From Eledone cirrhosa (lineage: Eukaryota), in NCBI GenBank assembly GCA_964016885.1, contig OZ024743.1, positions 156,178,001-156,242,000 of the forward strand: DNA of 64,000 nt. The letters run 5' to 3'. Positions 1,844 through 47,611 of the stretch are shown one piece after another. Position 1 is the first letter of the stretch. Every line of letters starts with the position of its first letter. A model generated the notes under the pieces. The model saw only the letters and a list, made by a program, of their open reading frames with translations, had not been told where the DNA came from and did no database searches. The position numbers were made by a program, and so were the translations under genes.

Positions 1844-3734
1844 CAAATTTGTTTTATTAAAACTGACATACCCGCATAAAGACAACCTTAACGGTTGACA
1901 TTCGCTGGATAGTTTAAAAAATATTTTATTGAGGGTGATTCAAAGTTATGAGTAAGTATGCAAATGAGTGTCAGAAAAATTGAAAAAACAACGGTTTATA
2001 TAAACTAAACTGTTGGAAGAAAGTAGTGAAAGGGAGAGAGTAAAGGGAAAAAGAAAAATATTGCAAGGGAGAGAGAAAGACTAGTGAAAGGGAGAGAGAA
2101 AAAAAGAGAAAGAGAAAGAGTGAAGAAGAAAGAAAATTGCGAAAAAAGGGAGAAAGAAAGAGAGACAAGATTATGCAGGTGATAGTGAAGAAAATTTAAG
2201 GAAGAGCGAGCGAAGAAATTAGCTTTTCAAGGGATGGAAATATTAAACCTAATACCATATTTATAATGATAAGTTACAAATTAATTTAAGAATAAATAAA
2301 AATATTGTAAATTTAATTATAAATAAGAAGTATTTAAAATATATTAAGATGTATTAATAATATATGGAATTAGATGGGTATGTTATAGATGATACATTAT
2401 TTAAATGTATAGTATTTTACATTGGAAAAGTATTTAGAATCTAGTTTTGTTTATTTAATTAAAATAAGTTTGGCAAAATTATATTTAGGCAGAATTTGTT
2501 ATTAGGTATAAGTCAAATCTTAAACACCTAAAAAATTCCAAAGATTACGAAAAATTACGAGAGTTTACAAAGGATTAAGTACTTAATTAGAAGTATATAC
2601 TAAAACCATTCAAACATTCAGACTATAAATTAAGACTATAAAAATTGAGATTATAAAAAACAATACGTAAGTTTAAAGGAACTTTAAAAGGAATTTTTTA
2701 AAAAGCTCAAATAACTCCAAGGATACATAGAAATCTCTTAAAAAGTTATAAGTTATTAAAATTCATCTTAAAATATAATTAAAACATAAACCATACATTA
2801 TTCCAAATATATAGAAGTATTTGGAAATATATGAAAATACATAAATATTAAAAATGTTTAAAATATTGGAAGATATGAAAATAATAGTTTTTCAGTATCT
2901 TTCAAAATATATTTTCCAAAATTTAAAAAAAATAACTTTCAATAAGTCTTTCAAAGGAAATTTTAAAATTTTCAAAAATCTTTTCATAAAAGAATTTCAA
3001 GTAGTCATTTAAAAAGGTTATGATATATTTTTCGGAGGTAGAATTTATAAGTGTAATAATATAAAGTATATTTATGAAGTAGTAATATTAGAAAGTAAAG
3101 GTTTTAAGGAGTAAATTAAACATTTAATAAGTGTATTTTATATATTTACGAAGTTATTGAAATTAGAATTATATTAAATTCATGAACCATATATGGATAT
3201 AATCTGAGGAATGAGATTATAGTTGTTTGGATAGAGAAAACATTATGTAAGGAAGATTAACCACATATTACATTTTATATATATATCTAAAAGTTGAATA
3301 TAAACGATGTTTACAAGAACTAAATAGGTTATTGCGCAAATTAACAGAGTTCTTACATTTTAGTATAAATAATATTTCTTCAACGCATAGGCCTCAAAAT
3401 TTGGATAAAGCTACAGAAGTAGGCTGGTGCTTTGGAGACAATACTCCAAGATAAAGAATAGTTTATATTCTTGGATTTTAAGTTCCATAATGAGTTGGAT
3501 AGAGAGGTTGAAGATTGTTTTACCAATATTCGTAAAGGAACCTTTATGGTTATTGAAACGAGATTTGAAGTCTGTCAAAGTAGAGCCGACATAGTTAAAG
3601 GAATTATCATTGGTTTTGACATTGCAATTGTATACTACATTTTTAACTAACACAGTTTTATTTAATGGACAGTTAGGTTTAATTCTACAATTACATTTAT
3701 CAGAATTGATATTATTGGAAACAGTATCATTGGA

Positions 3735-4363
3735 ATATATTTGCCTGAACCAAGACTCCTCAGTTGGTATGCGAAATCTAAACGGCGGTATAATCAAGCA
3801 AGTTGACGACTTCAAATACCTGGGTAGATATATCGCCTCCACAGAACATGATGTTAACATCAGACTGAGAAAAGCCTGTGGAGCATTGAATGCAATGGAA
3901 AAGATATGGAAATCAAACCTGCCGGTCAAATTAAAAAGGAGTTTCTTCAGAGCTGCCTGTTTATGGCTCTATCACTTGGACGCTAACGTCGGAACTGGCG
4001 AAAAAGCTAGACGTGGCATACACACGTATGCTCCGCGCTACTTTAAACGTGTCTTGGAGGGAACTCCAACCAAATAAGTATCACTATGGCAATATACCAG
4101 CTATCAGCAGGTCAATACGTGGACAGAGACTCAGATTTGCTGGCCACTTTTGGCGCAGCAAGGAAGATATAGCAGGTGATGTGTTGTTATGGAGTTCATC
4201 TCAAGGTGCAAGAAACGCTGGTCGTCCCAAGAAGACATGCGTCAAGCAACTTGGGGACGGTACTGGATGCACTGCGGAAGAACTGGCAAACGCTATGAGA
4301 GACAGAGATGGATGGAGGAAACGTGTCGTAGAAAGCCGAGCAAGCTCGACCTGATGATGATGA
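3735..4363 (+). mobile_element. 5'-truncated RTE-clade LINE nested in PLE-1
   Basis: VDDFKYLGRYI, IWKSNL, YTRMLRATLNVSWRE, RLRFAGHFWR, GRPKKT; (GAT)n tail at about 4352-4363; splits the PLE-1 ORF upstream of GIY-YIG. Confidence 0.9.
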
Positions 4364-6011
4364 TCATTGTATTGGATATTGCTAGAGGTATTAATGCTAT
4401 TCTGGTTAAGTTTTAAGTTTCTATTATTGATTCTATTTATATTCTGTGCTAAATTCATAGTGGCAGAATATGATAGTTTAATTGTATGCCCGTTAAAGAT
4501 TGAATGATACCTAAGTGTCTTGGGAAAACAATTAGCGAGAGCTTAAACAAATAGTTTAACTAAAGGAGTGTTAATACTTAATGAAAAAGGAGGAGCGAAC
4601 CATAATACATTTGTAGTTTTATTTCTTCTTTTAATGTTAGCCTTTGTGCTAGGTTTCTTATTATAATTATGGTTAATTTGCGTTTCTTTATTGTCGATGT
4701 ATTTAATTTCATTATTATAGCCTCCTCTACTTAAAGCTTCGTTATAATATTGTGCCTTATCTTCAAATATATTTCTATTTGCTGACATCCTAGAAATACG
4801 TTGGTGTACGGAATTTACGATAGTGTTCTTAACGGATCTCAGGTGATTGGAATTAAAGTTAACATAGTTTAAATTCTCATTGATTTTATGAAATGGATAA
4901 TATAGACCAGTATTAAGATTTAATGTTACATCTAAAAAATTAACTATTTTATAATTATTCTCTACTTCTACCTTAAGATTAAAGCTATTAAAAAATTGCA
5001 CTATTGATTTTCTTTTTCTATTGATTTCACAATTATTATTATTTTCAATTAGCAATAGCATACCATCACGATATAAACCACCGGTCATCTCCGGTATTTT
5101 TCTATGTAATGTATTGTTAATAAAAGGCCCCACGAGTCCGATGACCCCATAGTAATATCTAAATTGTTATCCCTATCTGCTCTATTCCAAAGATAGTTAT
5201 TTAATTTAATTAAGGTTTTACGTGCTGTTAAGGTGATGTGCATTTCATCGCTAGATAAATCAATATATTTAGATGCGTATGTAAGGGGTATATTAAGTAA
5301 ATTAGGAGTGATAGATGAGTAATAATTTGCAATATCCAATTGAATGAATTTATTGTTATGCTTATATTAGAAGCTTCTCTATGTAGTATTTCAAGGTCAT
5401 CATTGATCGCTCTCTTGTAATGTTTCCTTAATTCCTTCAATATAAGATTATTATACTCGTCCTTTTGCATTCCATATAGATTGTTGGTTTTATCAGATTT
5501 AACAAGAAATTTTTCAGTTCTTTCAAAATGTTCTATAAATTGTTTTTTCTAAAATTTAAAGTTTTGTATCATTGAAATAATTTCATTTTCAAATTCCATT
5601 AATAATTTGTTGGTAGGTGGATATTTCTTGGATTTGAATATCCTATCGAAGTTGGATTTCTTTTCTTTTTCATCTGATTGTTTATCAAAATGAAACGCAC
5701 GCCATGTAAATATTCTTATAAACGTGTCCGATTTCTCTATAAGTTGTTTAAGATAGTCCTCATTTCTAGGTAAAGGTATGTCTTTTAGAGAAGAAGAGAT
5801 CTTTAAGAATTGCACTTTTCATTAACCAGTTATAATTTAGAATGCTCAACAATAAAGGAGCTAAATATATGCAGAGGTTATATTTATTTTATTGGGATTC
5901 AACAAGCTTAAAAATGTGTATAGCTGATATAAAGTATTCAACAGTTTAGTGGAGTAAATATTCAATATATTATATATTAATAAATGTAAACTATATTTAT
6001 AAAACCATAAT

Positions 6012-6077
6012 TATATTATTGTATATATTTCAAGGGCAACCAAGGCAAGTTTTGGTGCGCTTTCATCAGATAAAATA
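6012..6077 (-). ncRNA. type-I HHR in the PLE-1 5' pseudo-LTR (U16.1 mutated to C)
   Basis: TATTTTAT CTGATGA AAGCGCACC..GGTTGCCCTT GAAA TATATA CA ATAATATA. Confidence 0.75.

Positions 6078-13744: not shown

Positions 13745-13823
<79 letters not shown>
13651..13823. repeat. (TA)n microsatellite
   Basis: direct reading. Confidence 0.95.
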
Positions 13824-13828
<5 letters not shown>

Positions 13829-14037
13829 TAAGTATGTATATGTACATTCATATATGTATACAGACGTCCAGTAGTATGTATATATATATACATACATTCA
13901 CAAATATATATATATGTACGTATGGATTCACCGAACATTTATTATAATGCTCGGTGTGTTTATAAATAAAGATCCCGAATTAAGCCGTACAATGTCTAGC
14001 AACAATCGTTGCTAATTTGTTCAACACTGACAAAGGA

Positions 14038-14080
14038 ACGATGTACTAGTTTCAAGCTTATTAGCTATCGTCAGCAACGT
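14038..14080 (-). ncRNA. minimal type-I HHR (family B1)
   Basis: ACGTTG CTGACGA TAGCTAATAAGCTT GAAA CTAG TA CATCGT. Confidence 0.8.
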
Positions 14081-14759
14081 ATACCTTCCTGCCAGTTGAT
14101 TGCACGTCTGAAAGTATATACTATCCCTATGTATATTAACGGCTGAGCACCCTAGTTTGCATATCGAGTGTGTTAATCGGCCAAGCGCACCGAAAATGAT
14201 AAACGGAAAAAATGAAACGAAATTTCATTTCTCACTCTTATTACGGCTGTTACTTAAATATAAGTATGTATATGTACATACATATATGTATACAGACGTA
14301 CAGTAGTATGTATATTTATATACAGACCTGCACACATATATATATATGTACGTATGGATTCACCGAACATTTATTATAATGCTCGGTGTGTTTGTAAACA
14401 AACATCCCGAATTAAGCCGTACATTGTCTAGCAACCATCGTTGCTCATTTGTTCAACACCGACAAAGGAACGCTGTACTAGTTTCAAGACTATTAGCTAT
14501 CGTCAGCAAATATACCTTCCTGCAAGATGATTGAACATCTGAAAGTATATACTTTCCTTGTGCATATTAACGGCTGAGCACCCTAATTTACATATCGAGT
14601 GAGTAAACCGTACTAAGAGTGATAAATGACATTTCGTTTCAGTTTTTCCGTTCATCGTTTTCGGTGCGCCCGAATGATTAACTCGCTCGGTATGCAAATT
14701 AGGCTGCTCAGCCGTTAAGTATATACTTTCAGACGTTCAATCATCTGGCAGGAACGTAT

Positions 14760-14802
14760 ACGTTGCTGACGATAGCTAATAAGCTTGAAACTAGTACAGA
14801 GT
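14760..14802 (+). ncRNA. minimal type-I HHR (family B1), weak helix I
   Basis: ACGTTG CTGACGA TAGCTAATAAGCTT GAAA CTAG TA CAGAGT. Confidence 0.65.
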
Positions 14803-15066
14803 TTCTTTGTCAGTGTTAAACAAATGAGCAACGATGGTTGCTAGACACTGTACGGCTTAATTCGGGATGTTTGTTTACAAACACACCGAGCATTACAATA
14901 AATGTTCGGTGAATCCATGCGTACATATGTATATGTGTGCATATATGTATCTATATATACATACTACTGTACGTCTGTATACATATATGTATGTACATAT
15001 ACATACTTATATTTAAGTAACAGCCATTCTAAGAGTGAAAAATGAAATTTCGTTTCATGTTTTCAC

Positions 15067-15099
<33 letters not shown>

Positions 15100-15278
15100 T
15101 TAGATTTTGATTATATGTTGGTTGTATACCAACACCTCTGTATGCAGGCTGGAGCACACGACTATGATTCCAGTTCCTCAGTGAAATAACAACCCAACCA
15201 GGAACTGGGCATATCAGAGTATTGACAAAATTATACACCTCAACAACATATGTACATGTCTATACCACACTAATTTTG

Positions 15279-15333
15279 ACTGCCTGAAAAGGTCACAGCC
15301 AAAGATGGCTGTCACCGAAATATATATAGCAGT
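15279..15333 (+). ncRNA. type-I HHR with C3.A8 mismatch in a solo pLTR-like fragment (about 15100-15385)
   Basis: ACTGC CTGAAAA GGTCACAGCC-AAAGAT-GGCTGTCACC GAAA TATATA TA GCAGT, followed by AATAAA. Confidence 0.8.
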
Positions 15334-15396
15334 AATAAACGAAGCTAAATTTTAAACATCTGACTTATTTATTTTACTTTATATTATATATATATA

Positions 15397-15586
15397 ATAA
15401 TTGTTTCTACTTTAGGCACAAGGCCAGCAAATACCCAGTGCATTACTGGTACTTTATTTTATCGACCCCGTAAGGATGAAAGGCAAAGTCAACCTCGGCG
15501 GCATTTGAACTCAGATCGTAAAGGGACGTAACTATGCTGGAAAGCATGTCGTCCGACGCTCTACCGATACTGCCAACCCACTGCCC
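15397..15586 (-). mobile_element. tRNA-derived SINE (Deu/Nin-type), full length
   Basis: minus strand GGGCAGTGGGTTGGCAGTATCGGTAGAG (A box), GAGTTCAAATGCC (B box), central domain, GAAACAATTATTA tail. Confidence 0.85.
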
Positions 15587-15803
<217 letters not shown>

Positions 15804-15848
15804 CGTAAAGTAAGAAAATTATAAAATTAACTTACTTACTAAAATATC

Positions 15849-15930
15849 ACTTCCAACTAATTAGTTTCTGGAATGGAATAATTATATTTTCCGAAGAAGA
15901 TACAGAGAACCATTCCGTCGTCAGGGAGGT
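15849..15930 (-). ncRNA. type-I HHR family A, intact core
   Basis: ACCTCC CTGACGA CGGAATGG..CCATTCCA GAAA CTAATTAG TT GGAAGT. Confidence 0.85.
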
Positions 15931-16366
15931 ATATTCTCATCTAAGTATCCAGGCAAAGCGTGGACACTGGAAACTTATTAAAAAATAATTCAGTGGATAT
16001 GAAATAGCAAAGCTTGGACTGAATTCCTAGCCATTGAGAAAATCACTACCTCTGCGTCGGTGGCAAATTCAAAAAGAATCAATCACGTGACATCGAGGTC
16101 AATCAGTGGAAAGTGGTTTGCTAATAAGACAGCGGCCTGCTACCATAGCAGCAGTCATGGCCAATATTGCTCGACAAATAATTTGGAGATAATTATAAAG
16201 TATTAATATCTAGTAACATATATATACATACAGATGCATATCAATGCTAGCAAATATATAGGTGTTGTCTTAGTAACTTTGTGGTTCAATGCATGGGGTT
16301 GCAGAACAATAATATGAGAGACGTAAAATAAGAAAATTATAAAATTAACTTACTTACTAAATTATC

Positions 16367-16448
16367 ACTTCCAAATAATTAGTTTCTGGAATGGAATAAA
16401 TATATTTTCCGAAGAAGATACAGAGAGGCATTCCGTCATCAGGGAGGT
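16367..16448 (-). ncRNA. type-I HHR family A, helix III point mutation
   Basis: ACCTCC CTGATGA CGGAATG..CATTCCA GAAA CTAATTAT TT GGAAGT. Confidence 0.75.
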
Positions 16449-16884
16449 CTATTCTCATCTAAGTATCCAGGCAAAGCGTGGATACTGGAAACTTATTAAC
16501 AAATAATTCAGCAACCCCATGCATTGAACCACAAAGTTACTAAGACAAAACCTATATATTTGCTAGCATTGATATGCATCTGTATGTATATATATGTTAC
16601 TAGATATTAATTCTTTATAATTATCTCCAAATTATTTGTCGAGCAATATTGGCCATGACTGCTGCTATGGTAGCAGGCTGCTGTCTTATTAGCAAACCAC
16701 TTTCCACTGATTGACCTCGATGTCACGTGATTGATTCTTTTTGAATTTGCCACCGACGCAGAGGCAGTGATTTTGTCAATGTGGCTAGGAATTCAGTCCA
16801 AGCTCTGCTATTTCCTATCCACTGAATTATTTTTTAATAAGTTTCCAGTGTCCACGGTTTGCCTGGATACTTAGATGAGAATAT

Positions 16885-16966
16885 ATATCCCTGACGACGG
16901 AATGGTTCTCTGTATCTTCTTCGGAAAATATATTTATTCCACTCCAGAAACTAATTAGTTGGAAGT
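16885..16966 (+). ncRNA. type-I HHR family A
   Basis: TCC CTGACGA CGGAATGG..CCACTCCA GAAA CTAATTAG TT GGA. Confidence 0.8.
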
Positions 16967-17135
16967 GATATTATAGTAAGTAAGTTCATTTTATAATTTT
17001 CTAATTTTACGTCTCTCATATTATTGTTCTGCAACCCCATGCATTGAACCACAAAGTTACTAAGACAAAACCTATATATTTGGTAGCATTGATATGCATC
17101 TGTATGTATATATATGTTACTAGATATTAATTCTT

Positions 17136-17229
<94 letters not shown>

Positions 17230-17279
17230 AGTATGTATGTATACGTACATACATATATGTATACTGACGTACAGTAGCA

Positions 17280-17328
<49 letters not shown>

Positions 17329-17769
17329 GCATACAGGTACACATACATATATGCACGCATCAGTTTAGCCGACGTTTATTATAACGCAGCTTTGTTCGCT
17401 TGTTTGTCAACAAACCGAACAGCCAGAATTTATGCCATACGGTGTTAAGGCAACCACGTCACCTTTTTTTTGTTCAACACTGACACAGGAACGATGCACT
17501 AGTTTCATGCTTGTTAACTATCTTTAGCACCGTTTACCCACCTGCCAGATAGTTGAACGTTCGAAAGTATATACTTTCCTTATGAAAATTAACGGCTGAG
17601 CAGCCTAATTTGCATATTGAGTGAGTTAAATCGGTCAGGCATACCGAAAACGACAAGTTGAAAAAAAATGAAAACGAAATTTCATTTCTCACTCTTAGTA
17701 TGGCACTTACTTAAATGTAAGTATGTATGTATACGTTCATACATATATGTATACAGACGTACAGTAGCA

Positions 17770-17816
<47 letters not shown>

Positions 17817-17976
17817 GCATACAGGTACACATACATATATGCACGCATCAGTTTAGCCGACGTTTATTATAACGCAGCTTTGTTCGCTTGTTTGTCAACA
17901 AACCGAACAGCCTGAATTTATTCCATACGGTGTTAAGGCAACCACGTCACCTTTTTTTGTTCAACACTGACACAGG

Positions 17977-18021
17977 AACGATGTACTAGTTTCAAGCTCG
18001 TTAGCTATCATCAGCACCGTT
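17977..18021 (-). ncRNA. minimal type-I HHR (B2), intact
   Basis: AACGGTG CTGATGA TAGCTAACGAGCTT GAAA CTAG TA CATCGTT. Confidence 0.9.
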
Positions 18022-18255
18022 TACGCATCTGCCAGATAGTTGAACGTTCGAAAGTATATACTTTCCTTATGAAAATTAACGGCTGAGCAGCCTAATTTGC
18101 ATGTTGAGTGAGTTAAATCGGTCAGGCATACCGAAACGACAAGTTGAAAAAAAATGAAAACGAAATTTCATTTCTCACACTTAGTATGGCACTTACTTAA
18201 ATGTAAGTATGTATGTATACGTACATACATATATGTATACAGACATACAGTAGCA

Positions 18256-18364
<109 letters not shown>

Positions 18365-18523
18365 GCATACAGGTACACATACATATATGCACGCATCAGT
18401 TTAGCCGACGTTTATTATAACGCAGCTTTGTTCGCTAGTTTGTCAACAAACCGAACAGCCTGAATTTATGCCATACGGTGTTAAGGCAACCACGTCACCT
18501 TTTTTGTTCAACACTGACACAGG

Positions 18524-18568
18524 AACGATGTACTAGTTTCAAGCTTGTTAGCTATCATCAGCACCGTT
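18524..18568 (-). ncRNA. minimal type-I HHR (B2), intact
   Basis: AACGGTG CTGATGA TAGCTAACAAGCTT GAAA CTAG TA CATCGTT. Confidence 0.9.
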
Positions 18569-18803
18569 TACCCATCTGCCAGATAGTTGAACGTTCGAAA
18601 GTATATACTTTCCTTACGAAAATTAACGGCTGAGCAGCCTAATTTGCATATTGAGTGAGTTAAATCGGTCAGGCATACCGAAAACGACAAGTTGTAAAAA
18701 AATGAAAACGAAATTTCATTTCTCACTCTTAGTATTGCACTTACTTAAATGTAAGTATGTATGTATACGTACATACATATATGTGTACAGACGTACAATA
18801 GCA

Positions 18804-18856
<53 letters not shown>

Positions 18857-19015
18857 GCATACAGGTACACATACATATATGCACGCATCAGTTTAGCCGA
18901 CGTTTATTATAACGCAGCTTTGTTCGCTTGTTTCTCAACAAACCGAACAGCCTGAATTTATGTCATACGGTGTTAAGGCAACCACGTCACCTTTTTTGTT
19001 CAACACTGACACAGG

Positions 19016-19060
19016 AACGATGTACTAGTTTCAAGCTTGTTAGCTATCATCAGCACCGTT
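19016..19060 (-). ncRNA. minimal type-I HHR (B2), intact
   Basis: identical motif to 18524-18568. Confidence 0.9.
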
Positions 19061-19295
19061 TACCCATCTGCCAGATAGTTGAACGTTAGAAAGTATATAC
19101 TTTCCTTATGAAAATTAACAGCTGAGCAGCCTAATTTGCATATTGACTGAGTTAAATCGGTCAGGCATACCGAAAACGACAAGTTGAAAAAAAATGAAAA
19201 CGAAATTTCATTTCTCACTCTTAGTATGGCACTTACTTAAATGTAAGTATGTATGTATACGTACATACATATATGTATACAGGCGTACAGTAGCA

Positions 19296-19333
<38 letters not shown>

Positions 19334-19463
19334 TATATACACATATGCATACAGGTACACATACATATGTGCACGGATCAGTTAAGCCGACGTTTATTAT
19401 AACGCAGCTTTGTTCGCTTGTCTGTCAACAAACCGAACAGCCTGAATTTATGCCATACGGGTA

Positions 19464-19508
19464 AACGGTGCTGATGATAGCTAACAAGCTTGAAACTAGT
19501 TCATCGTT
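19464..19508 (+). ncRNA. minimal type-I HHR (B2), GUU cleavage triplet
   Basis: AACGGTG CTGATGA TAGCTAACAAGCTT GAAA CTAG TT CATCGTT. Confidence 0.88.
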
Positions 19509-19666
19509 CCTGTGTCAGTGTTGAACAAAAAAGGTGACGTGGTTGCCTTAACACCGTATGGCATAAATTCAGGCTGTTCGGTTTGTTGACAAACAAGCGA
19601 CAAAGCTGCGTTATAATAAACGTCGGCTAAACTGATGCGTGCATATATGTATGTGTACCTGTATGC

Positions 19667-19895: not shown

Positions 19896-20004
19896 TCAAA
19901 AGCTAAGAGCATATATATATATCAAAGGAATTGTGGCAAGGAACGAGATGGACCATATCGCACCAGAGTACTCAATACTTAGGGTAGTTGAGTGGGAAAT
20001 ATCA

Positions 20005-20097
20005 CCCCGACGGCAGAGCTCAAGCCGTTTCGACGGCTGTTTCTGGACTATATTAGAATTTTTTGCCCGGTGGATATTAGCCGAACTTCTCAAGGGG
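20005..20097 (-). ncRNA. type-I HHR with U3-A8 core (PLE-2 3' pLTR)
   Basis: CCCC TTGAGAA GTTCGGCT..AGCCGTC GAAA CGGC-TTGAGCTCT-GCCG TC GGGG. Confidence 0.85.
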
Positions 20098-22603
20098 GTA
20101 CTTACTTATATGGGAAGATTGTAGTTGTCAAGAGGATTGGTTAAAATTTGTTGAAAACACAAATAAGTCTATCATGGCTTTTCTTGGGAGGTAGGTGTGG
20201 TTGAACTTGCCTGTAGAACAATAGGGGATTGAGTGGGGTGGTCAAGCGTTGAAAGTGATATGTATACAGCAGATTCTAAGGCTAGTGTATGGAGTGGAGG
20301 AGGGAGGTTATAGAATAGGTAAATCGATGAGAGTAGGAGACAATAAAAGATAATAGATAGAAAGAAAAAAATATATAAAATTAGATAGTGAGAAATAAAT
20401 AAAAATATCATAATGCTATCTTACAATTACAGGTTAATAATTTGAGAATAGAAAAAAGTGTAGAAATTGAGTAGTACCAGAAGTGATAAATAATTAAAGG
20501 GGTTTAACACGTCTGCTATAAGTATTTAGTAAAACGTATTCGGCCAATTCTGTCTTAAAATTACAGGGGTGGGGGAACTGACGCTACAGAGGCCCGATGG
20601 TCTGCATCAGGGTAGGCGAAGGGAAAAAGCAAAGGAGGAAGTAAATAGGGGGTGGAAAGAAACAGGCGGAAGAAAAGACAAAGAGGAAAAGAAAAGAAAA
20701 GAGATACATCTACCTAAGTCAGCTGGGACTTCCCCTAACTTATTCGGCAAGTAGTCGGGTATCAGCCCTTTTCCAACAACTCGAGTCGTTATGGGGTTTG
20801 AGGGCGAGGTATGTCCTACGCAATCTGTGTTTGCATGCGGTTACCAATTCCTCTTTCTTGTATAGGAGTTGGTCCTTCGAAAATAGCATTTGTAATGTTT
20901 CCTCTGAGCGTAAGTTACACGGACGGCTTCCTCCCGTGTAAGAGTTAGCCTTGGACAGTAAGCGCCAAGTGAGATTGTAGGTTATATTATTATCTTGGAG
21001 GTCCCAGATGTGGCCCGAAAGTGTAGTGGCATGTCGCCGGACCGGCTTTCGGAATGTATGTCGGTGTTGGTAGAGCCGGGTCCTGAAGACACACGCGGTT
21101 AATCCTATATAAGCTTTATTCGGCGTGTCCGTCCTCACGTTGCACTGGTAGATCACGTTACATTCTCAGCATTTGTTGTTGAGGGGGCACGTAGATCTCT
21201 CAGGGCTGTTACACCTCCTGGTCGGCTCACCATTGATGTCTAGGTTATTTCTTCCATAGGGGCTGAGTTTTTTGTTGTTTGAGGAGACGATAATTTCTGC
21301 GAAGTTAGGTGTGGTGCTGTAGGAGAGTGTGATGGTGTTTTTGTTGATTATGTTGTGGTAGCGGTGTTGTAGTGGGAGTGTTTTTCGAGGAGTCAAAGAA
21401 GATTTTCCCGATAGGTGTTGCCACCTCGGCATTAGGGGCGGGGGGGGGACTGAACCATGTTACGTGCGTGAGCGGCCGTGTCGCCTGCTGGATCCGGTAA
21501 AGGAAGCTGGATGAAAGGATATTTCCTCCCGAAAGCCACTCCGCTTGAGGGCCTGGTTGTAATGAGGCGCTTGTTCGTCGAATATCTGCTCATTAGCGGA
21601 CAAACGAAGTATGCGGAGGGAGATGTTTTTAACCAGGTTATTGGTGATGCTTCTAGGGTGGTTAGAGCGGCGGTGGATGTAATGCAGGTTGTCGTTTGGT
21701 TTCGTGTATGGGTAGTACAGATCATTTTCGAGGTTAAGGGTAACGTCCAGGAAATTGACTCGGGTTAGGGACGTTGTAGGATGATTTTAAATCCCCAGTC
21801 TCGGAAGAAGTTGATTAGTTGTTTACGGACCCGGTCTGTACTACTGGGGTTGTACCCTTTGAGGGTGAGGAGCCCATCATCCCGGTACAATCCACCGCCG
21901 AATGCAGGAAACATTTAGATGAGTTTAAATAGTAGCAATAGTCCTATAAAATCTGTGACCTCGGCCGAATCCGTCGCGCCCATACTGACGTCGAAGGGGG
22001 AGTCGGGAGATCTCTTTATCCACTTAGAGTTGTCGAAAAGTAAGACTGTCTTCCTGTCGTGGAGAATGATATTTCTTTCCTGCTCAGTGATGGGTGTGAG
22101 TGTTTCGGCAAAATCCAAGGCGGACGTAAAGAGCGGTAAGGTAATTTTAAGATAGAATTGGCCGAATACGTTCTACGAACTACTTACAGCAGACGTGTTA
22201 AACCCCTTTAACTCTCTATCACTTGTGGTACTACTCAATTTCTATAAGTTGTTTCTATTCTCAACTTATTAACCTGTAATTGTAAGATATCACTGTGATT
22301 TTTTTTATTCATTTCTCACTATCTAATTTTATATATTTTTTTAATTTATTTCTATTATCTTTTATTGTCTCCTACTCTCATTCGATGTACCTATTCTATA
22401 ACGTCCCTCCTCTACTTCATACACTAGCCTTAGAATCTGTTGTATACATATCACTTTCAAAGCTTGACCGCTCCACTACTCCTCTATTGTTCTACAGGCA
22501 AGTTCAGCCACTCCCACCAAATGCCATGACAGACTTATTTATGTTTACAACAAATTTTAACCTATCCTCTTGAACACTACAATCTTCCCATATAAGGAAG
22601 TAC

Positions 22604-22697
22604 CCCCTTGAAAAGTTCGGCTATTTATTCCCCAGGCTAAACATTCTAATTTAGTCCAGAAATAGCCGTCGAAACGGCTTGAGCTCTGCCGTCGGGG
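22604..22697 (+). ncRNA. type-I HHR with U3-A8 core (PLE-2 inverted pLTR)
   Basis: CCCC TTGAAAA GTTCGGCTATTT..AAATAGCCGTC GAAA CGGC-TTGAGCTCT-GCCG TC GGGG; predicted cleavage after C22693. Confidence 0.85.
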
Positions 22698-24877
22698 TCA
22701 TACTTTTTCCTATATATATATATATATATGTATAAGTATATGTATACATCTGTATATACATTCTGGTGGCTGGAACAATAATATTGATCGTACTAAGTAG
22801 GCCCGAATAAAATTAATGTCAAATTCATGTTAAGTCTCTGTGAAATCTAAGTCAATCCTACGTCAGGGCTGCCTGGCGTACCTCGAAATGCTACGTTCAT
22901 ATTTGAGTTCTATTGGCTTGATCTCAAAACCGTGACTTGAACCACAATAAATTGGCTCGAAGTTTCAACAATATATAATCCCGATTTTATAAAGTTCATT
23001 TTGTTTCAATGAAATACAGCTTTGCATGAAATTTATTATATATGCATGCACAAAATTAACTCTATCCGTCTAGCTAAGTGAAATGTTGCCGATGTAATTG
23101 TAGCCTCGAGTGAAAACGTTTTACCTAGTAGATTTGCGCATAATTGTGATCTTTGGCTGCTACACAAGTTACATTAATATAACGTATATATTTTGTATAT
23201 GCATGTATATGAGTGCGTTGGGTGCGAGTGTATGTGTTTATCTATCTATTTGTGTATATATGTTTGTGTATCTGTTTTCTATTTGTGGTGTGTATAATAT
23301 CTTATTATATCTGTGGGATTGTATGTTAATGTATATTACGGCATTTAGTTATTTAAACATATTTTAGAGGGACGGCAAACGTCGCAGTAAATTTCATCAC
23401 AATAAAGAAACATTCACATAAATGTTTGGTGTGTGTGTGAGACATTAACTGCGACTTATTATTTCGTAATTTAGTTTGAGAAAAACAGAAAATATTTCAA
23501 AAAAGTAATAAACTTATTATTATTTTTACAAATAAGTATTGCCATCTTCTGAACCTGATAAACGAACAAAAAGTTACATTTCCTCAGATATTACATTGCT
23601 TTCTTCAAAAAGACTTTCCTCACGACATGCGAACAAAGAAGATTCAAAACATTTCAGGAGTTTTAAGTACCATACACAATGATATATCAGCAATTGATTA
23701 ACGAATTGAAGTTGAAAGTCTATACCATTGGAGGTAGACAAAATCACTTAGTGTGCAATGCATGCCGAGTTATTTATGATCGTATTTATGTAACTGGATG
23801 CAAAATAAATGGAATTTCTCAAAGGCTTTGTCATGTATTTAATATTAAATGGGCATTGGGTTTACCTGAAGTGATAGAAAAATGTTTTGACCTCCTTTAA
23901 TAGAGCTAAAATGAAATTGGTTAGCCGAATCTACTATATAGCAGATGTTATAGGAGCGGAATGAAGAGGGTTACTAATGGAATCCACCATTCTCTTCAAG
24001 AGACTTTAATCCTTCAAAATCTAAAAGAGATTGACTAGGAAATAATACATACTATTGCATATTCCGTGGTAGCATGCTAGAATAAAAACACCCGTGGTGT
24101 TACATGATTCATTTAAAGATGACCACAATGAGAGAAAAAATAAAACAATAATGATGATAAAAACATTGATTATATACCTGCAATAACACTGGTTCCAAAA
24201 ATGGTGGTGATAATAATATCAATACTAGTAATAAAGATGAAGTTGCTGTTGTATTGGGTGTTATTGTTGTTGCTGATAATAAGGGTGGTGTTACCGCCAT
24301 CATCAAATAAAATCGCATCAAATAATACCTTACCAGTATTTTTACTGGTACCGGTGTACGTGGACATGGACACACAATATGTTTCTGACCAGTGGTAATG
24401 GCAATATAATGATAGCGAGGACTGCAGACGATAGTTAAGTATTTAAACTTTAATCGGAGCCTGCAAACTCAACCGCTCAAAAGACGGATACATCTAGCAC
24501 TAGAATTTACTATGAAAAGAGATTCCAAATGTCTTATGTCTGCTGGCATCACAACTAGATGGTAAAAGATGACAAACAACGAATACCCATAACTGCACAA
24601 CTACACCTATGATTTTATGAGAATCAGATGAAAGCAAATCCATAACCGTGTACCAAAAATATATATATCGTGCAAAAAAGCAAATACTGTGAATTAAACC
24701 TGTTTTAACTACTTTAATCTGATAAATAAATAGTCCGTCTTTCCTAAACACCATCTTTTAGCTGGAATAAACAACTGGCGTGAAGTGTTTTGGGATTGTT
24801 CGAATCAGTTTATTCTAACGAGCTTACTGAGTAAAAACCACGTTTATGCACGTCATCCTCTCCAATATATATATATA

Positions 24878-28969: not shown

Positions 28970-30500
28970 ACGTTAATTCTATAAATAATACTAGGTCACT
29001 TGCTACTAACTCTGTTAATTTCTCTAATCGTAATTGTAATTGTCCTGTTAGAACTAAATGTCCTCTTAATAACCAATGTCTTGATAAAATATTAGTGTAT
29101 GAATGTAAGGTTATAAGCTGTACTAATTATTTTACCTATTACGGTTCCACTTCCACTTCTTTAAAAGCAAGATTTTATAATCACGAATCGTGTTTTAAAT
29201 ACCAACTCAAAAGAACTAACACGGCACTCTTGGAACTCATATGGTCCTTAAATGACAAAAATATTAACTATAACATATCTAGGAGGAAAGTTTGCTACGC
29301 CTTTCCTTACCTGAATTCTTCCCTATCCAGAACATGTAATCTCTGCCTAGCCGAGAAATTTACCATTATATCTAATTTTAATAAATAGACGTACGGATTT
29401 CTTCTCGCTCTGCTTGCATAAATCCCAGAGAACCTTCTATAAAGTATACAGCTAAAATTTCAATAGATAATTAGTTTAAAATATTATACAATTTACTCCT
29501 TATATATCGTTAGAGGTCCCATATCTTGTTCTTCTTTCACGCTTTTTCCTTTATTTTCTTTTTTTTCTTTTAACATTTCTAATCTTTAATCTGTAACTTT
29601 TATTTCCCAATTACTTCTCAATGCATATTATTACTCACTACAGCATTTTCCATTTTTCCATTTTTCTATTTTCCTCATATTATTGGCCATAGAAACTATA
29701 TTTTTTAATACATAATAATATTACCATTAGGAAATGTTTGTAAACATATATACTTTTTGACGTTAGATATCTTCTTCCTTAAATTTTCCTTTTTCTTCTC
29801 TCCTTCCGTATTCGTTTTAAACCTATTATTTACTTTTACATATTACAATACATAAAAACAAATTTAAACCCTAACTAATTCCTCTAAGTTCATAATTCAT
29901 TTATTATCTCCTCTCACATTATATCCTTAATATTATTAATATTTTTATTTTAATAATACATATGAATAATTATTTTCGCACATTTTATTAAACCCTTCAA
30001 TATATAAACCTTTATACTATTCTTAATTCCTTTTTCTTTAATCATAAACATCAACATCAATAATCCTCATTAACTCTTAATTTCAAAATCTTTTTAAATT
30101 ATCTATTATCATCCAACGGTTTTTTTAATTTCTCTTTGTGAGTCAATGATTTTCTCAGATGTAAAGGCTATTTCTCTCTATCACTCATTTCTCTTCCTCT
30201 CTCATCCTTCCTTCTTATACTTCTCCCACTTCATCCTTTATTTTCTTTCTTACTCTTCCTTACCATTTCCTAACCCCCCCCCCTCTTTTTTTTTTCCCAA
30301 TCTCATATATCAATCGCTTTTTATTTTTCATATTTTGATTTAAAACTTCACTGCTCAGAAGTGTTTTTTAAACTTCATATCATGTTTCCCTATTTTATCT
30401 GATGAGAACGCAAATATCATCCCATGATGATATTTGTTTTTGAAATGCGCATAATAAAATACTTGGAACTCTTTTACCCATCTGTTGATCTTATATTATA
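28970..30500 (+). mobile_element. 3' fragment of a Penelope-like element (GIY-YIG, 3' UTR, pLTR)
   Basis: CNCPVRTKCPLNNQCL..VYECKV..YYGST..KARFYNH..CNLCLAEKFTII; pyrimidine-rich UTR; HHR near the end; abuts TA. Confidence 0.85.
30391..30461 (+). ncRNA. type-I HHR, intact core, palindromic helix III
   Basis: TATTTTAT CTGATGA GAACG-CAAATATCAT..ATGATATTTG-TTTTT GAAA TGCGCA TA ATAAAATA; predicted cleavage after A30453. Confidence 0.88.
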
Positions 30501-42147: not shown

Positions 42148-42250
42148 ACGGAAAAAATGAAACGAGATTTCATTTCTGACTCTTAGTACGGCTGTTACTT
42201 AAATATAAGTATGTATACGTACATTCATATATGTATACAGACGTACAGTA

Positions 42251-42319
<69 letters not shown>

Positions 42320-42800
42320 CATGCACACATATATATATATATATATATATATGCGTATGGGTTCACCGAACAATTATTATAATGCTCGGTGTATATGTAA
42401 ACAAACATCCCGAATTAAGCCGTACAGTGTCTAGCAACCATCGTTGCTCAATTGTTCAACACTGACAAAGGAACACTCTACTAGTTTCAAGCTTATTAGC
42501 TATTGTCAGCAACGTAGACCTTCCTGCCAGATGGTTGAACGTGTGAAAGTATATACTTTCTTTATGCATATTAACGGCTGAGTAGCGTAATTTGCATATC
42601 GAGTGAATTAATCAGTCGGGGTCCCGAAAACGATAAACGGAAAAAATGAAATGAAATTTCATTTCTCACTCTTTGTACGGCTGTTACTTAAATATAAGTA
42701 TGTATATGTACGGCTTAATTCGGATTGTTTGTTTACAAACACACCGAGCATTATAATAAATGTTCGGTGAATCCATACGTACATATATATATATATATGT
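42148..42800 (-). mobile_element. dispersed copy of family B1 with short 5' inversion; HHR 42473-42515 degenerate (CTGACAA)
   Basis: aligns to 13824-14610; inverted piece from about 42706. Confidence 0.85.
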
Positions 42801-47440: not shown

Positions 47441-47611
47441 TTTTGGTTTTAAGTTTTACCGGTTGCGCATATCTAATGCTTTTCAAAAGTAATTTTGAGA
47501 TAGAGCGTCCGTGATGTTTGCTCTGATCTGAGCAAACATCACGGACGCTCTATCTCAAAATTACTTTTGAAAAGCATTAGAAATGTGCAAACGGTAAAAC
47601 TTAAAACCAAA
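47441..47611. repeat. near-perfect hairpin (about 82-bp arms, 6-nt loop)
   Basis: ..GAGCGTCCGTGATGTTTGCTC TGATCT GAGCAAACATCACGGACGCTC.. Confidence 0.9.

Follow-up and report, generated by a model that had tools for sequence, protein, structure and literature searches.

In a window of 64,000 nucleotides from the Eledone cirrhosa genome (assembly GCA_964016885.1, contig OZ024743.1, positions 156,178,001 to 156,242,000), a Penelope-like element (PLE) of the Hydra clade carries in its pLTRs a type I hammerhead with a U3-A8 pair, which probably cleaves, in vivo and after C17, a small part of the RNAs made from the element. This reading builds on the fold, the motifs of the clade, 3' ends at two places (about +17 and +95 from the site) and two sharp 5' boundaries of insertions (-40 and +1). 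The most likely picture, as far as genomic copies can tell, is that of a ribozyme that is active but leaky and gives ligatable products. U3-A8 as such was already known, and the value of the finding rests on the footprint at the cut site, not on U3-A8.

The element and the fold of its two arms

The PLE spans approximately positions 19923-22710 of the window and is flanked by (TA)n tracts (Table 1). Its two pLTR arms are 88.5% identical across 573 nt, and its RT/GIY-YIG ORF is interrupted by stops plus a frameshift near 21774. P0001, a near-intact ORF of 710 residues from another family copy (L153), contains DKT, an RWK-like motif, the CxCX5C linker, CxxC and CxH near conserved E and N, and a C-terminal EN, without CCHH. 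These are all the Hydra-clade motifs in the list of Craig et al. 2021, which gives DKT, RWx, the CxCX5C linker, CxxC plus CxH, a C-terminal GIY-YIG and no CCHH (PMC8557442). The (TA)n targets, the pLTR, the inverted 5'-truncated copy and the tail at one end are also traits of that clade (PMC8557442), so that the window element is placed in it by motifs. The tail measures about 75 nt, compared with 30-40 nt in Hydra-clade PLEs (PMC8557442), and in a direct tandem copy it runs on into the 5' UTR and ORF; in such a tandem at L150 the unit is 3,096 nt, with hammerhead and tail preceding the ORF. A search of Pfam with P0001 returned 0 families, and 402 homologues were retrieved.

An origin of the two window arms from two templates is unsupported, both being about 90% identical to subfamily A copies, and the hammerhead pairs of each locus listed are mostly concordant. 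Two loci (L129 and L336) have opposed hammerheads of different subfamilies, from separate insertions or from two templates. The pLTR may also contain an intron at 22280-22497 (+), with GTAAGA near 22280 and pyrimidine-rich TTGTTCTACAG/G near 22497.

Table 1. Positions of the element, its hammerhead parts and the main boundary of short copies within the window.
Feature	Position	Strand	Remark
Inverted 5' pLTR copy	22141..22710	+	stops at (TA)n tract 17 nt past C17 (short end)
RT + GIY-YIG ORF, broken, 5'-truncated	20785..22157	-	residues 250-706 of P0001
Sense 3' pLTR carrying second hammerhead	19997..20564	-	core TTGAGAA 20093-20087; C17 at 20009
Tail, about 75 nt, to (TA)n (long end)	19923..19996	-	
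Type I hammerhead fold, right arm	22604..22697	+	
Helix I, right arm	22604-22607/22694-22697	+	CCCC/GGGG
Core UUGAAAA, right arm	22608-22614	+	DNA TTGAAAA
G10.1-C11.1, right arm	22615/22670	+	
Helix II, right arm	22618-22626/22660-22668	+	inner hairpin 22635-22656
GAA, right arm	22671-22673	+	GAAA 22671-22674
Helix III, right arm	22674-22678/22688-22692	+	
Loop 3, right arm, TTGAGCTCT	22679..22687	+	9 nt: 2 nt + GAGCUC palindrome + 1 nt
Predicted cleavage site C17/G1.1, right arm	22693..22694	+	GUC triplet
TTAGT inside helix II	22651..22655	+	A = 22653, -40 from C17; main 5' boundary of short copies

Both arms share the layout CCCC-UUGA(A/G)AA-G...C-GAAA-CGGC-UUGAGCUCU-GCCG-UC-GGGG. A first-pass annotation of this DNA had read TTGA(G/A)AA in both pLTR copies as the core of a PLE hammerhead with U3-A8 in place of C3-G8, with a helix III of 5 bp, a loop with a GAGCTC palindrome, a GUC site and a long helix II with an inner hairpin, and the sequences of the arms bear this out. 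U4 G5 A6, A9, G12 A13 A14, A15.1-U16.1, G10.1-C11.1 and H17 are all present, N7 is free, and the 3-8 pair is Watson-Crick (U3-A8) in both copies. By its modelled structure, the motif is a type I hammerhead with U3-A8 in a PLE pLTR. Folded without constraints, the right arm forms helices I, II (9 bp plus an inner hairpin of 7 bp) and III around an open core; this three-helix fold, which ends in helix I, is both the minimum free energy structure and the centroid (-32.7 kcal/mol, z -2.06, with 7 of 200 shuffles equally good). The left arm misfolds, preferring a hairpin that buries GAAA (z 0.11), because its private changes in helix II favour that hairpin. Its nearest genomic relatives are 92-93% identical, it clusters with the A7/C7 subfamily, and its G7 looks like a private change as well. 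Of the copies folded, which came from all but two subfamilies, most are predicted to adopt the active fold only in a minority of molecules (P of 0.00-0.33).

The metazoan PLE minimal hammerhead (min-HHR) has a helix III that is absent or of 1-2 bp, which makes dimers obligatory, and an extra base between 9 and 10.1. We do not file the present motif there, because its helix III has 5 bp and no extra base lies between 9 and 10.1; the palindrome that is also typical of the min-HHR is present, as GAGCUC in loop 3. Self-pairing through GAGCUC is predicted to give a duplex of -26.9 kcal/mol versus -13.0 kcal/mol for two hairpins. Searches with CUGANGA miss the UUGANAA motif, as had been pointed out from the start, and an Rfam scan of the window had no hammerhead family among the 150 of 270 matches listed.

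Several further features were observed in the window. At 3419-5776 (-) lies what is left of another, more distantly related PLE ORF (28-40% identity to P0001), with a canonical CUGAUGA core upstream at 6069 (-) and a TATATA palindrome after its GAAA. A PLE endonuclease remnant occupies 29008-29437 (+); the minimal hammerhead that follows it at 30399 (+) has a canonical CUGAUGA core and a TGCGCA palindrome. The hammerhead-like motif at 15276-15332 (+), with core CUGAAAA (C3·A8), long helix II and TATATA palindrome, belongs to another family or is a mutated copy. There are also a near-perfect inverted repeat of 100 nt at 47477-47576, whose miRNA matches are below the gathering score, and a repeat with a spacing of about 490 nt at 13777-19545 and 42212-42614, whose copies, some in tandem and some inverted, lie between (TA)n tracts.

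The fold and the 3-8 pair across the family

The family is very large: in the 3.0 Gb genome, the 30-nt 3' half of the motif has 39,347 exact matches and the tail 25,025, and 4,589 sites fit the 5' core pattern. All family samples come from the places that were listed first, on one or two contigs. Because the pattern used to pick the aligned rows already specifies some bases of the 5' core, invariance there is partly built in. In 32 natural copies picked across subfamilies, 88% of the cells are paired, versus 29-49% in slid controls, and the figure for helices I and III is 94-96%. Helix II has three compensatory columns (G-C to A-U, U-A to G-C and U-A to A-U), which represent few events because they split only the old from the young lineage; at one of them, the B subfamilies have a U·U mismatch. 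N7 is A, C, G or U depending on the subfamily. The GAGCUC palindrome of loop 3 is constant, and its flanks vary by subfamily (UU, CG or AG on one side, U or A on the other). The predicted hammerhead fold is supported by the compensation in helix II and the variation of N7.

The 3-8 pair is neither kept nor cleanly covarying family-wide. C3·A8 accounts for 1,550 of the 4,589 cores, and G8 is found in 41 (32 U3·G8, 8 C3-G8 and 1 A3); in the first 100 cores listed, 93 of which were fetched, there are 71 U3-A8, 27 C3·A8 and 2 U3·G8. The first-pass annotation had regarded a lack of 3-8 covariation among other family copies as a refutation of its reading, and a clean covariation is indeed missing from these numbers. 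This weakens the ribozyme claim for the subfamilies concerned, not for the window copies. C3·A8 is the hallmark of whole subfamilies and U3·G8 of a single one (L050, L103, L343); the latter looks recombinant, with an old-type 5' strand and a young-type 3' strand of helix II. The old lineage is mostly U3-A8 and includes a small G8 group that contains C3-G8 (5/32). A shifted register, CUGA-GA-A with N7 missing, would suit the G7 C3 subfamilies alone and would fail for those with U3. From these counts, U3-A8 is a long-lived majority state and, since whole subfamilies are C3·A8, not obligatory for amplification.

Two other claims of that annotation have to be revised. It had taken as conservation that only N7 differs between the two window cores, but at the given identity of the arms this occurs with a chance of 0.18-0.25, and therefore the two-core identity carries no weight. 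The novelty of U3-A8 was overstated, as the variant was published for PLE hammerheads in 2014 (PMC4209133). What stands is the motif, the fold and the U3-A8 pair as observed; novelty, clean 3-8 covariation and two-copy conservation do not, and the insertion boundaries that hint at real cleavage at C22693 had been overlooked.

Insertion boundaries at -40 and at the predicted cut site

Short copies of the family have two sharp 5' boundaries. Among the first 90 tail-bearing copies listed, 57 have their 5' end between -47 and -32 relative to C17 (mode -40, 13 copies), 10 extend beyond the core, 5 begin at 0 to +2 and none begins at -58 to -111. The copies bounded at -40 mostly lie in (TA)n as fold-back pairs, in which one 3' end is short and the other long, and the old lineage has the same boundary, at TTAGTT. 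T(T/C)AGT resembles the initiator (Inr) consensus, and a transcription start inside helix II is therefore the likely cause of this boundary; RNAs that start there would lack the UUGANAA box. A 3' splice site is ruled out because many copies retain the AG, and an RT stall at the weak inner hairpin is less likely because stronger stems are passed with no boundary at -58 to -111.

The second boundary is at the position equal to 22694 (+1), the base after the predicted cut, where 5' ends of family insertions pile up. The first hint of it was weak, two of the five copies at 0 to +2 being microhomology joins, and it led to a targeted test of +1. An unbiased pattern search for short fold-backs gave 1,023 loci, the first 50 of which, as listed, were examined: 23 are joined by untemplated bases, 3 are blunt and 24 are joined by overlap, the last group being excluded from the histogram of ends because such ends are ambiguous. 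The 23 insert-joined fold-backs have 31 of their 46 arm ends exactly at +1, another 7 at +2 or +3 (38 in total) and 0 of 46 at 0 to -2; their typical form is CCCC-(A/T)-GGGG. A junction pattern that selects tail copies with two non-family bases before GGGGUC has 774 matches in the genome. Of 67 examined, 49 are true +1 junctions, which suggests a few hundred in the genome; the other 18 were classed as G-run insertions or point changes, although one of them, L395, proved to be a true junction. The 67 are those of the first 100 that remain after setting aside 33 CG-prefixed matches, a class in which 11/11 examined were artefacts.

Some of these junctions are fusions. At L374, the last 35-40 nt of U6 snRNA are fused to G1.1 in both arms (Rfam U6 matches with E of 1.3e-4 and 5.9e-4, below the gathering score; a single U6 locus). 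At L395, L367 and L411, respectively, positions +180, +651 and +946 of the unit are joined to +1, and the sequence at L395 can be read as more than one full turn of a 180-nt circle. A hammerhead cut produces a 5'-OH end (PMC3884650), and U6 has a terminal cyclic phosphate, to which RtcB joins 5'-OH RNAs (PMC6789731). As in the U6/LINE-1 chimeras made by RtcB, the 3' end of U6 is fused here to the 5' end of a retroelement RNA that is then retrotransposed; unlike in them, the junction is the predicted ribozyme site and not a variable break, at one locus (PMC6789731). RT template jumping could yield the same U6 and internal junctions, and it also needs a physical 5' end. In our opinion, the copies that start at the predicted cut site likely record RNA cleavage in the living germ line and possibly RNA re-joining as well.

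Footprints are unevenly distributed among the subfamilies. Tail type B3 makes up 21/49 junctions versus 7/90 unselected copies (Fisher p 3e-6), the window's tail type A is under-represented with 5/49 versus 30/90 (p 0.002), and the mixed B1/B2 type has 12/49 versus 24/90. As the footprint-rich B3 has U3-A8 in 11/11 cores, a U3-A8 core likely cleaves; type A is U3-A8 too, yet under-represented, and therefore the 3-8 pair alone does not set the rate. Footprints of type A do exist (the CCCC-T-GGGG copies L401 and L404), far fewer than those of B3, and one or two have a tail whose cores are mostly C3·A8 (L477, L424). The core of footprint copies is inferred from the tail type, because these copies are without the 5' half, and cleavage in trans would blur the link between tail and core.

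Mechanism, alternatives and significance

The lizard PLE PAc gives a useful template. In PAc, two internal RT starts bound the tail and both DNA strands are extended (Frangieh 2024, PMC11167929). This Poseidon element of Anolis resembles ours in its two fixed 3' ends bounding the tail, its AT-rich targets and a hammerhead upstream of the RT start sites (PMC11167929). We think that RT would likewise start here at two internal sites bounding the tail and that both cDNAs would extend to a fixed RNA 5' end. Most RNAs would start at -40, giving the bulk of the short fold-back copies, whereas those with the whole motif would be cut after C17, by a leaky and perhaps protein-assisted self-cleavage, to leave a 5'-OH at G1.1 and, once copied, insertions that begin with GGGGUC. 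This 5'-OH end could be joined to the 3' end of U6 or of an RNA of the element itself, with RtcB as the likely agent and RT template jumping as the other candidate, and such joining would also turn unit RNAs into circles; with cleavage at both pLTRs, unit circles would be possible, as Cervera and de la Pena proposed. Against cleavage speak the 3-8 pair, broken in a third of the cores, and the loss of cleavage in PAc upon single changes at 3 or 8 (C3G or G8C; PMC11167929). Efficient cleavage is probably not needed for spread, because C3·A8 subfamilies reached at least 1,550 copies.

An unlikely alternative is that RT stalls at +1, at the base of the GC-rich helix III hairpin; the hammerhead would then be a relic, for the most part dead, with its 3' half maintained as a promoter or RT signal. 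The broken pair of the 1,550 C3·A8 cores, the excess of exact 3' halves over exact 5' cores, the ability of the short RNA to form helix III and the finding that PAc insertion in vitro was unaffected by hammerhead mutants (PMC11167929) are all in line with it. A stall, however, does not readily explain why the ends share a single base and avoid both the unpaired C17 and the interior of the stem, nor why they carry untemplated bases of the kind typical of run-off, and the fusion to the exact 3' end of U6 requires a physical 5' end. Moreover, helix III is nearly identical in types A and B3, whose footprint shares differ about 18-fold, and helix II and N7 behave like those of a selected ribozyme.

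We consider it very unlikely that strict use of a compensatory U3-A8 pair is the notable feature of the family: the pair is the majority state, it also occurs in the old lineage and C3-G8 is found in an old minor group, but entire subfamilies with C3·A8 and one with U3·G8 contradict a strict rule, and the variant was already published. Slightly less probable still is a genuine RNA end at +1 that a protein nuclease or transcription from a second start would produce, since, while the data reveal an end and not its chemistry and PAc cleavage required protein (PMC11167929), the end coincides with the exact hammerhead site, a capped end is not ligatable to U6 by RtcB (though template jumping could join it), and endonuclease mutants of PAc did not abolish RNA cleavage (PMC11167929).

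The U3-A8 pair has been described before. Cervera and de la Pena 2014 reported U3-A8 in Cercyon PLE hammerheads of Schistosoma mansoni, with about 1,300 matches (PMC4209133), and Perreault 2011 reported natural U3-A8 hammerheads and cited in vitro activity (PMC3088659). The present motif shares with the Cercyon ones the PLE pLTR site, type I, the U3-A8 core, the short helix I and larger helix II, the palindromic helix III region and the occurrence in inverted pairs. It differs from them in its stable 5-bp helix III with a 9-nt loop, in the missing extra base between 9 and 10.1, in a helix II that spans 56 nt with an inner hairpin and in the abundance of C3·A8 subfamilies (PMC4209133). The Hydra hammerheads in File S2 of Craig et al., unlike those described here, all have CUGANGA, a loop 3 of 1-3 nt and a short helix II, and the motif of Hydra-1_oBim has a different sequence (PMC8557442). 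In the accessible literature, which mostly excluded subscription papers and included a 2026 preprint (10.64898/2026.07.22.740005), we found no record of this large-helix Hydra variant, of the family's mixed 3-8 states or of insertion boundaries at the cut site.

A split hammerhead that drives circularisation of PLE RNA is a more speculative extension, which we hold to be doubtful. A transcript starting at -40 would bear only the substrate half at its 5' end, and the UUGANAA half in the 3' pLTR would capture that end over 3 kb by means of the long covarying helix II; alternatively, two RNAs would meet through a 2+6+1 kissing loop. The 2+6+1 layout of loop 3 is that of the HIV-1 dimerisation loop. 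When co-folded, the two hammerhead halves are predicted to form the same three helices (-30.9 kcal/mol). Cleavage would give 5'-OH and cyclic-phosphate ends, which RtcB would close into circles serving as templates for tandem copies. If this were true, cleavage and ligation by a PLE ribozyme would be on record in vivo for the first time, in this genome.

What PLE hammerheads do in vivo has been a matter of doubt: the accessible text of the 2014 paper holds no in vivo evidence (PMC4209133), Craig 2021 calls their function unclear (PMC8557442), and in PAc no reads end at the ribozyme site and cleavage is not needed in vitro, unlike the pile-up of genomic insertions at that site here (PMC11167929). 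Insertion boundaries are a record kept by the germ line, and they can be counted wherever a genome is rich in PLEs. As natural U3-A8, C3·A8, U3·G8 and C3-G8 subfamilies with differing footprint rates exist side by side, it becomes testable whether cleavage is of benefit, of harm or neutral for transposition.
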